Assembly (NCBI GenBank): GCA_020063075.1
Contig: JAGUVE010000030.1
Span: forward strand, 1-26,190
Direction of reading: 5' to 3'
DNA: 26,190 nucleotides
From: Parcubacteria group bacterium
GTDB taxonomy: Bacteria > Patescibacteriota > Minisyncoccia > Minisyncoccales > JAGUVE01
Position 1 is the stretch's first letter, and each line of letters begins with the position of its first letter. This document shows positions 7,912-26,190 of the stretch, one piece after another. The translations under genes were made by a program, and so were the position numbers. The notes under the pieces were generated by a model that was given only the letters and a program-made list of their open reading frames with translations, was not told the DNA's origin and searched no databases.

Positions 7912-8081
7912 GATCGACAAATGGTTTCAGAGCGAGGGCATCTCGCCGAAGGGTGCATCCCAGTAGTAGAAGCTTCGCTTCACTACGGGACTTCGCTTCG
8001 CAGCCGACGGCGTGCCTGCCCCGTAGGGAAACCGAAGGTTTCTCCTTCGGGGCTCCCTGAGGCAAGATGACCGAGCGATTG
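7912..8081. repeat. Structured intergenic element with two nested CCC(A/C)GTAG hairpins; shares three sequence blocks with the 5992-6253 element
   Basis: Hairpins at 7959-7989 and 8019-8052; shared blocks GTTTYAGAGCGARGGCA, CTTCGCAGCCGA and CCGAGCGATTG in the same order. Confidence 0.7.
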
Positions 8082-24512: not shown

Positions 24513-24540
24513 ATTATACAAAAATTACCTATTTTTGCAA
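24513..24540 (-). promoter_or_regulatory. sigma70 promoter of the FtsA-like gene, overlapping the alaS 3' end; probably leaderless
   Basis: TTGCAA (24540-24535), N16, TATAAT (24518-24513), 6 nt, ATG (24506). Confidence 0.65.
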
Positions 24541-26190
24541 AACTGCCCTGATTCTCCTTACCCCGGCTCCCGAACTTTCCTCTTTTATAATTTCAAGATG
24601 GCCGATTTCCGATGTTCTTTTGACATGAGGACCGGCACAAATCTCTCTGGAAAAAACCCGCCCTGAAGGATCCGAAGGGTTGCCTGCGGAATAAACCGAA
24701 ACTCTCTCTGGATATTTTTCTTTAAAAAAGGCCAAAGCGCCGGATTTTATCGCCTCCTCATAACTCATTTCTTCTTTTTTTACTTCTAAATCCTCTTTTA
24801 TTTTTTGATTGACTAAATCCTCAACTTTTTTTATTTCTTCCTCGGTCATTTTTTGGGGATGAGAAAAATCAAATCGCAATCTTTGGGCTGTGATATCCGA
24901 ACCCATTTGCTTGACATTTACTCCTAAAATTTCTCTCAAGGCGGTATGAAGCAAGTGAGTAGCAGTATGAAGTTTTGTCGCCTCATAACTCGCCTCTTTG
25001 CCAACTCCGCCGAATTTTTTTTCTGCCCCGGCCCGCGAAATTTCCTGATGTTTTTTCAAAGCTTCGTCAAAATCTTTTCTTAAACGTTCTTTATCTATCT
25101 TTACGCCTTTTTCTTCTATTATTTCTATAATAAACGCTAAAGGCGTTCCAGAGCTTTCATATAAACGAAATGCTTCCTCTCCGCTGATACTTCCCTTAGC
25201 AATAATAAGCGAAGTAGCTTCTTTTATTCCTTGAACCAAAGTTTTCTCAAATTTTTCTTCTTCGTTTTGAATTGCAGTTAAAATATCAGTTTCTTTTGAT
25301 TTGATTTCAGGATAAACCTCTTTATAAATTTCAATCGCTATTTGAGATAAAGGAATCAAAAAATTCTTAGGTAAATTTAACAACTTGCCGTATCTAATCG
25401 CCCTCCTCAAAATTCTCCTTAAAACATATCCCCTTTCAACATTTGAAGAAAAAATACCTTCGGAAATCAAAAAAACAGCCGATTTTGTATGGTCGGCAAT
25501 AATGCGATAGGATTTAGAATTTAGAAGATAGGATTTAGGAGTATTTTTCTCGATTTCCTGAATGAGGGGTAAAAACAGGTCAGTTTCAAATACGCTCGGT
25601 TTATTTTGAACTGCCATCGTCAACCTCTCCAAACCCATACCGGTATCAACGCCCTTTTGTTTTAGGGGCGTTAATTCCCCTTTTTCATCTTGAAAATACT
25701 CGTTAAAAACCAAATTCCAAAGTTCGGTATCATTTATATGAAACTCAACTGTCGGGCCGCAGGGCCCCTCTTTGCCGGTTGGTCCCCAGAAATTATCGGC
25801 TCTTCCGCATTTTTTTATTTTGTTTTCCGGAACTCCCAGTTTTTTTAAGATCAAAAACGATTCTTCGTCAAAAGGAACAGCTTGCCCTGAGCCTGCCGAA
25901 GGGTCCCCGCCAAAAACCGTAAAGATAAAATCGTCTTTCTTTAACTTTAATTCTTCAAAAATGAACTCAAAAGCGAATTTTACCGCCTCTTCTTTAAAAT
26001 ACTCGCCGAAGCTGAAGTTGCCCAGCATCTCAAGAAAAGTCAAATGCGATTCGTCGCCAACCGACTCAATATCGGAAGTCCGAAAACATTTCTGGCAGGA
26101 AACAGCTCTTTTTCCAAAAGGAGATGGTTTGCCGATGAAATATTCTTTAAACTGCTGCATTCCGGCCGTCGTAAATAAAACCGAGGGGTC
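24529..26190 (-). CDS. alaS: Alanine--tRNA ligase, short form without C-Ala domain; 5' end outside the window
   Basis: Frame open to 26190: DPSVLFTTAGMQQFK; QKCFRTSD, HLTFLEMLGNFSFG, GPCGP, VDTGMGLERL, editing HTATH and EICAGPHV, ends GVRRIRAVLQK. Confidence 0.96.
   Translation of the reverse strand, partial: DPSVLFTTAGMQQFKEYFIGKPSPFGKRAVSCQKCFRTSDIESVGDESHLTFLEMLGNFSFGEYFKEEAVKFAFEFIFEELKLKKDDFIFTVFGGDPSAGSGQAVPFDEESFLILKKLGVPENKIKKCGRADNFWGPTGKEGPCGPTVEFHINDTELWNLVFNEYFQDEKGELTPLKQKGVDTGMGLERLTMAVQNKPSVFETDLFLPLIQEIEKNTPKSYLLNSKSYRIIADHTKSAVFLISEGIFSSNVERGYVLRRILRRAIRYGKLLNLPKNFLIPLSQIAIEIYKEVYPEIKSKETDILTAIQNEEEKFEKTLVQGIKEATSLIIAKGSISGEEAFRLYESSGTPLAFIIEIIEEKGVKIDKERLRKDFDEALKKHQEISRAGAEKKFGGVGKEASYEATKLHTATHLLHTALREILGVNVKQMGSDITAQRLRFDFSHPQKMTEEEIKKVEDLVNQKIKEDLEVKKEEMSYEEAIKSGALAFFKEKYPERVSVYSAGNPSDPSGRVFSREICAGPHVKRTSEIGHLEIIKEESSGAGVRRIRAVLQK
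24661..24679. repeat. In-frame mini-repeat CCCTGA-N5-CCGAAGGG in alaS (encodes PSDPSG)
   Basis: ccctgaaggatccgaaggg; 14/19 identical to 25885-25903. Confidence 0.55.
25885..25903. repeat. In-frame mini-repeat CCCTGA-N5-CCGAAGGG in alaS (encodes PSAGSG)
   Basis: ccctgagcctgccgaaggg inside VFGGD-PSAGSGQA-VPFDEES. Confidence 0.6.

Follow-up and report, generated by a model that had tools for sequence, protein, structure and literature searches.

A 24-nt repeat read in frame in alanyl-tRNA synthetase and other conserved genes of a Patescibacteria genome

In-frame colonization of essential genes by repeats has been described in Rickettsia and in a few REP-rich bacteria. The Rickettsia palindromic element (RPE) occurs in frame in unrelated conserved genes and is translated with them (Ogata et al. 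2000, summarised in PMC10969869). The GTAG/CGTC REPs are stem-loops of 20-40 bp found as singles, inverted dimers and clusters, and some of them, RPE-4 and RPE-6 included, are intragenic and encode approximately 10-30 amino acids (Di Nocera, De Gregorio and Rocco 2013, PMC3733652). CGTC REPs have no dedicated transposase, and in recB of two Xanthomonas species REPs are located at about the same site (PMC3733652). Here, we describe a repeat that extends in-frame colonization to the ultra-small Patescibacteria, with a unit that is much smaller, at 24 nt. Our literature search found nothing on the core of this repeat, on the peptides read from it, or on in-frame palindromic repeats or RPEs in CPR/Patescibacteria.

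The stretch of DNA that we analysed (the window, 26,190 nucleotides) corresponds to the full length of contig C15; the assembly comprises 118 contigs and 712 kb, with 39% GC and 87.5% completeness, and comes from a tiny groundwater bacterium. The names borne by homologues of its AlaRS (Minisyncoccales, Nealsonbacteria) place it in the Patescibacteria/CPR. A gene for alanyl-tRNA synthetase (AlaRS) at its end hosts two copies of a short motif, at positions that we call site A and site B:

24529..26190, minus strand: alaS, short-form alanyl-tRNA synthetase, host of both copies (open reading frame and translation, Pfam, 120 homologues)
25879..25902, minus strand: site A, canonical 24-nt unit, eight codons read as PSAGSGQA (DNA, empty sites, core match, structure)
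24655..24678, minus strand: site B, 24-nt variant with a GGATCC-like centre, eight codons read as PSDPSGRV (cross-family DNA, empty sites, structure)

The alaS open reading frame (24529-26190) is matched by the Pfam families tRNA-synt_2c (E 4e-113) and tRNA_SAD (E 2e-13), and the contig ends before its 5' end is reached. The encoded protein has catalytic, tRNA-binding and editing domains and lacks C-Ala. A short AlaRS of 540-620 aa that ends directly after the editing domain, without C-Ala, is uniform in the order, both in the window and in 120 homologues.

The original prediction, made from the letters of the window, held that one mini-palindrome had been inserted twice into this gene in the same codon phase. 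The motif, CCCTGA-N5-CCGAAGGG, is exact on the plus strand at 24661-24679, in site B, and at 25885-25903, in site A. On the coding strand the two sites read N-PSDPSGRV-FS and D-PSAGSGQA-VP in one codon phase, which bears out the proposed peptides PSDPSG(RV) and PSAGSG(QA). Both sites are longer in the window than in the closest relatives and in the Aquifex AlaRS (3HTZ): the site-A unit occupies the place of two codons in non-carriers (net +18 nt) and site B is a net insertion of 24 nt. The Aquifex enzyme has no site-A segment. The GC content of each insert is 67%, compared to 39% in the genome. With up to two mismatches allowed, the window contains three matches to the motif, the third with two mismatches at 2088, versus 0.09 expected from shuffles. 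A gapped match of 6+8 bases picked post hoc in 26 kb is weak alone, so the repeat family was tested independently.

The strict pattern CCTTCGRC-N2-4-GCTCAGG has 11 matches in the window's own genome, whereas the reversed control pattern has none in any of 41 genomes. Fourteen of the 41 genomes are positive and 27 have no strict match; six of the 40 other genomes of the same order, from other families, have 19, 13, 8, 7, 6 and 3 matches. The own 0.7-Mb Patescibacteria genome has approximately 20 repeat loci, of which three quarters fall within conserved genes, and the copy number is between 11 and 22 in 712 kb, or about one per 30-60 kb. The predicted repeat of about 24-27 bp is thus a real family, and its unit length is 24 nt, both as the period of tandem arrays and as the length added to purL, to murD and to AlaRS at site B.

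Within the unit, a conserved core of 13-14 nt (TGAGC-N2-4-KYCGAA, or TTCGRC-N-GCTCA on the other strand) is closed by a short stem, variable in sequence yet complementary, and is accompanied by a short GCAAG-like tail. Among 22 core matches the stem extends the core by a mean of 4.0 bp, whereas shuffled partners give 1.6 bp and none of 2000 shuffles exceeds 2.7 bp; the stem is of the CC/GG type in 11, of the GG/CC type in three and of other types in the rest. Site A matches the core, and site B does not fit the strict core pattern. Units are found singly, in inverted pairs and in tandem arrays, with inverted doublets in ligB, in a conserved 505-aa open reading frame (ORF505) and on contigs C1 and C10. 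Single units, both AlaRS copies included, fold no better than shuffles (z approximately 0), and only the inverted pair in ligB, whose units can pair with each other, does so (z -2.1). The word mini-palindrome is therefore too strong for a single unit, which is a weak palindrome with a stem of 4-5 bp and folds like its shuffles. At L300 (G017:C4, approximately 77249-77390) at least four tandem 24-nt units lie in a 982-aa open reading frame and are read as the 8-aa repeat LRLGSGQA.

In-frame copies are present in at least 12 conserved genes of the own genome (G000), and the corresponding sites are empty in orthologues. The hosts supported by Pfam are PurL, a histidine kinase, RluA, a methyltransferase, MurD, a HAD hydrolase, LplA, LigB, a second Mur ligase, PCMT and a SHOCT protein; ORF505, supported by its orthologues, hosts a further copy. 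The purL copy adds 24 nt relative to orthologues, is read as PSAGSGRG in the same frame as site A, and shares an identical 19-mer with it. Alignment to orthologues from the closest genomes shows clean insertions of 24 nt in murD, 45 nt in ORF505, 57 nt in ligB and 72 nt in lplA, and the net gain is 9 nt in rluA and 6 nt in the second Mur ligase. All intragenic copies are free of stop codons and have lengths divisible by three, giving translated loops of 6-8 aa for single units and 15-24 aa for double units. The copies in AlaRS, PurL, MurD, LplA and LigB, with empty sites in orthologues, confirm the proposal of RPE-like read-through in essential genes. A phase bias, for which a test had been suggested, is not a feature of the family: all five stop-free combinations of frame and orientation are in use, so the phase common to the two AlaRS copies is no family property.

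No target-site duplication is visible at the junctions in comparison with the empty orthologous sites of purL, AlaRS and the other genes. The word GAY precedes the AlaRS and purL copies, and the ligB copy alone sits within an AAATTCA-type microsatellite. In the open reading frame of the HAD hydrolase (C1:10159-11004, L037), which may not be intact, two units occupy codons 22-40, and there is no ATG, GTG or TTG upstream of the DxD motif. The 5' leader of groES contains one unit (C31:4895-4915, L042), approximately 45 codons before the Cpn10 domain. A weak match in rpsM (21467) was considered as a unit and rejected as chance, as S13 aligns there with no insert.

The distribution of AlaRS inserts among relatives is patchy. 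In 29 genomes of the order, a filled site A was seen in the window alone, and a filled site B in the window, L014 and L017. A tree in which the window and L014 form one clade was not rejected (p-AU 0.68), and one that unites the window, L014 and L017 was rejected (p approximately 1e-64). In a denser set of 120 AlaRS homologues (540-620 aa, 67-82% identity), 15 have a site-A insert of the P-S-x-x-S-G-Q type and 11 have the 8-aa site-B insert. The carriers are dispersed over the tree, with nine parsimony changes for site A and 11 for site B; a single gain would entail 27 losses at site A and 21 at site B. Instead of the lineage-specific insertions that had been predicted, the same two positions are filled in many dispersed lineages. 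The nearest relative of a carrier is usually free of the insert, with the ordinary two residues (KD, KE or EL) and no remnants of the unit. The site-A unit is also present in the window's two nearest AlaRS relatives, and within the window's small clade P0001 and P0004 have both inserts, P0006 has a decayed site-A insert and none at site B, and P0020 has neither.

Site B is occupied in other lineages by unrelated loops of 4-20 aa. Five loci (L201, L202, L209, L211 and L235) have a Lys-rich insert of 19-20 aa there, the DNA of which starts with a reversed, core-like GAGCTTCCGAAGG; the site is empty in a relative with a 94% identical protein. Sequencing runs contained distant holders only (share at most 0.10). 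Contigs from these runs that are 90-93% identical cover site A with no gap, and no polymorphic insertion was directly seen in the sequencing-run contigs. One 94%-identical contig has 24 gap letters somewhere across 24575-24831; because their exact position is not displayed, this contig is excluded from the evidence, although it is the only hint of polymorphism. In run X1, contig depth at window position 25896 reaches approximately 620, with C>T, far above the neighbouring depth, which is probably explained by repeat copies of other organisms mapping onto the unit.

The DNA at these positions was read from 80 metagenome loci. At site A all carriers share the eight codons, except for two central ones that vary within the family, and the unit always replaces two codons. 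At site B most carriers have a variant centred on GGATCC, while L251 and L268 have canonical units at the same position. When the aligned codons are inspected, P (CCT) and G (GGG) are nearly invariant among carriers at both sites, although GGG represents only 19% of Gly codons. The fraction of identical codons is 0.75 over the site-B insert, compared to 0.33-0.39 for these residues elsewhere in the gene. Degenerate copies are present as well, for example HSASLGQ and L246. The site-B variant was found in four of 401 genomes, belonging to four families, once per genome and at AlaRS site B only. None of the 401 genomes has dispersed copies that could act as donors of this variant, so fresh insertion from a resident family does not explain it. 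The claim that the same element was inserted twice is therefore upheld for site A, which is a canonical unit, and has to be amended for site B, which holds a distinct, GGATCC-centred variant restricted to AlaRS; the two inserts are not simply one element present twice.

In an AlphaFold model of AlaRS (mean pLDDT 81), site A is predicted to form a loop of the catalytic domain that joins strand 88-93 to helix 109-117. Site B is placed in a beta-hairpin of the editing domain, in the turn that links strands 496-503 and 512-517, and precedes the Cys-x-Gly-Pro-His (C-x-G-P-H) zinc motif by a few residues. Both inserts thus lie between secondary-structure elements of the predicted structure, consistent with the suggestion that they create new loops in AlaRS.

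The repeat resembles the RPE in being inserted in frame in conserved genes, in adding peptide segments to the proteins and in occurring in a small, reduced genome (PMC10969869). The RPE, however, is approximately 100-150 bp long and has its own conserved peptide in one frame, whereas the AlaRS repeat is 24 nt long and is read in five combinations of frame and orientation. The AlaRS repeat also differs from the RPE in combining a conserved core with variable stems, in belonging to a different phylum and in having a core common to many phyla. The short RPE-4 and RPE-6 carry a CGTC tag, whereas the AlaRS units contain neither CGTC nor GACG. Like the GTAG/CGTC REPs, the AlaRS repeat is short, is found singly, in inverted dimers or in clusters, and lies in part inside genes. 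Stems of 5-13 bp with small, variable loops characterise the GTAG/CGTC REPs, whereas in the AlaRS repeat it is the loop-like core that is conserved. The AlaRS-repeat units and their immediate flanks contain neither a GTAG nor a CGTC tag, and the peptides read from the repeat are absent from the intragenic REP lists of PMC3733652.

Genomic placement separates the repeat further from classical REPs, which are predominantly extragenic and near the 3' ends of genes. Of the strict matches in four relatives, 30 of 42 lie within open reading frames of at least 150 aa, as do approximately 12 of 16 matches in the own genome, compared to 83% of random positions in the own genome. With 71-75% of its copies in genes, the repeat is only slightly depleted there, unlike classical REPs, and its placement relative to genes is close to random. 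As in REPs and REPINs, the repeat is a short imperfect palindrome that also occurs in inverted doublets, and its single AlaRS units fold weakly. MITEs are defined by terminal inverted repeats and a target-site duplication, and the junctions here lack duplication. Uptake sequences (DUS/USS) occur about once per kb and arise by substitution, compared to 11-22 copies of the AlaRS repeat in 712 kb, which are insertions of 24-72 nt.

Inverted doublets of a short hairpin, in a genome that also has RAYT-like Y1 genes, recall the REPIN-RAYT system (Bertels and Rainey 2011, PMC3116915). The genes in question, and a second family of palindromes in the same genome, are as follows:

Contig C108, 2348-3091, and contig C102, 2271-3011 (L044, L045): two paralogous Y1_Tnp (RAYT-like) open reading frames of approximately 246 aa, with HUH and Tyr motifs
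Genome-wide, for example window 7959-8030, contig C1 20830-20950 and contig C27 3459-3520: second repeat family, GTAG palindromes of approximately 85-90 nt

In contrast to REPIN-RAYT, the RAYT-like genes are not flanked by the AlaRS repeat, their distribution does not track it, and copies number in the tens and not in the hundreds. The AlaRS motif is absent from the flanks of both Y1_Tnp genes, where there are other inverted repeats. Across the own genome and 40 others, G018 has seven copies and no Y1_Tnp, and among the 34 genomes that have at most two strict matches, 15 contain Y1_Tnp. A RAYT link was therefore rejected, as neither the gene flanks nor the distribution in these genomes shows an association. 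The GTAG family has termini of the form CCCnGTAGTrGAA ... TTCyCTACnGGG and two inner hairpins and is commoner than the AlaRS repeat; the most over-represented 9-mers of the genome are pieces of its termini. Given their GTAG tag, these palindromes are the better candidate partner for the two RAYT-like genes.

Transposition of the IS200/IS605 type is hairpin-dependent, creates no target duplication, allows precise loss and inserts beside a short target word. The AlaRS repeat shows a circumstantial likeness to it in the lack of duplication, the clean junctions, the GAY before the AlaRS and purL copies and the presence of Y1 genes. Unlike IS200/IS605 elements, the AlaRS repeat has no left and right ends, guide sequence or linked TnpA that we could find, and its target word is putative.

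We consider it probable that the AlaRS motifs are translated copies of a small, GC-rich Patescibacteria repeat that is inserted in trans and filtered by selection for loops; the repeat may be selfish and mobile. Units would enter DNA by insertion that depends on the hairpin or the core and acts in trans. The two likeliest routes would be a single-strand transposase of the HUH/Y1 type and a microhomology-guided template switch at GGN-GAY. Selection would then retain only the copies in tolerant loops, and the AlaRS loops themselves would have no required function. The recurrent filling of the two AlaRS positions could reflect a target preference combined with this selective filter. Counting against insertion in trans are the lack of a linked mobilising enzyme and of a target-site duplication, and single units that fold like shuffles. 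The geometry of site A is also constant, in that 24 nt always take the place of 6 nt, and independent transposition would hardly be expected to give this. This constant geometry, the AlaRS-only site-B variant and the codon conservation are left unexplained by simple transposition and leave room for a functional-signal or homing-like reading. One possibility, which we regard as tentative, is that a homing-like 24-nt unit repeatedly and precisely fills and vacates the same codons of an essential gene across lineages by an undescribed site-directed or templated-repair process. Such a process would recognise a loop motif common to the repeats of many bacterial phyla.

The units may instead be functional nucleic-acid signals, such as a protein-bound hairpin loop or an RNA signal, and not selfish DNA, a reading that we consider unlikely. 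It is equally improbable, in our judgement, that the AlaRS inserts are old, have been lost often and are conserved letter by letter through selection on DNA or RNA. A signal would account for a core that is kept while its stems covary, for insert codons that are far more conserved than codons elsewhere although the proteins are 62-76% identical, for a site-B variant present only in AlaRS, in one copy per genome and in four families, and for a core shared with repeats of many phyla. It is difficult to reconcile with the low and patchy copy number, including 27 of 41 related genomes with no copies, with the lack of a common context among positions in unrelated genes, and with degenerate copies such as HSASLGQ and L246. 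In addition, a single gain needs 21-27 losses, non-carrier sisters have ordinary residues and no remnants, and no Rfam family match was found: at E up to 1, none overlapped site A or B. Were selection to act on the protein, P-S-x-x-S-G-Q loops would have arisen repeatedly by ordinary indels and the DNA likeness would follow from the peptide. Both loops do lie at variable positions of AlaRS, at one of which other lineages have their unrelated 4-20-aa loops. Yet the same DNA is found in all other frames, on both strands and in unrelated genes and spacers, and this frame-independent occurrence contradicts selection on the protein; synonymous positions are kept (CCT, TCA and GGG) against a usage of 19-35%, and the purL copy has the 19-mer of site A. 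We therefore consider protein-level selection very improbable.

Uptake sequences such as those of Haemophilus and Neisseria occur inside genes in tolerated frames, and Patescibacteria are thought to take up DNA. A sequence of this kind, gathered by point mutation and biased uptake of DNA, would fit the tolerated intragenic frames known for such sequences, the presumed uptake of DNA by Patescibacteria and the wide occurrence of the core. The density of the repeat is about one per 30-60 kb and not about one per kb, its copies add 24-72 nt to the sequence of the orthologues instead of replacing bases in it, and most related genomes have none, all of which makes an uptake signal extremely improbable. 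Chance resemblance between two unrelated loop-coding stretches, alike at 14 of 19 bases, was also considered: a gapped 6+8 match chosen post hoc is expected about once among the approximately 3e8 position pairs of 26 kb, and site B does not fit the strict core pattern. For site A chance is refuted, as that site is an exact member of the family. At site B, other families have the same 24 nt, or canonical units in L251 and L268, and the reversed control pattern has no matches, so that we give chance a negligible probability.

Repeats of this kind create new surface loops even in enzymes as constrained as AlaRS, one of them beside the zinc site of the editing domain. That the same two codon positions are filled time and again, and by DNA more conserved than the protein requires, is left unexplained by ordinary transposition and drift, and this recurrent occupation makes AlaRS a concrete and testable case for target-specific or templated insertion. 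The units also have a practical consequence, in that they distort alignments, open reading frame calls and marker-gene trees in metagenome-assembled genomes.

Outside the order, genomes from many phyla contain the canonical 17-mer, often in clusters of several copies in 8 kb and with flanks that are conserved. It was counted in at least 120 stretches, with a random expectation estimated at approximately 70 for 596 Gb; the raw count is near random, so only clustering and conserved flanks count as evidence. In Dehalococcoidia (L090), the 17-mer core adjoins tandem arrays of a 14-nt repeat. In Sphingomonadales (L081-L161), the 17-mer forms the two inverted arms of palindromic elements of approximately 100 nt with GAACGG-type ends.
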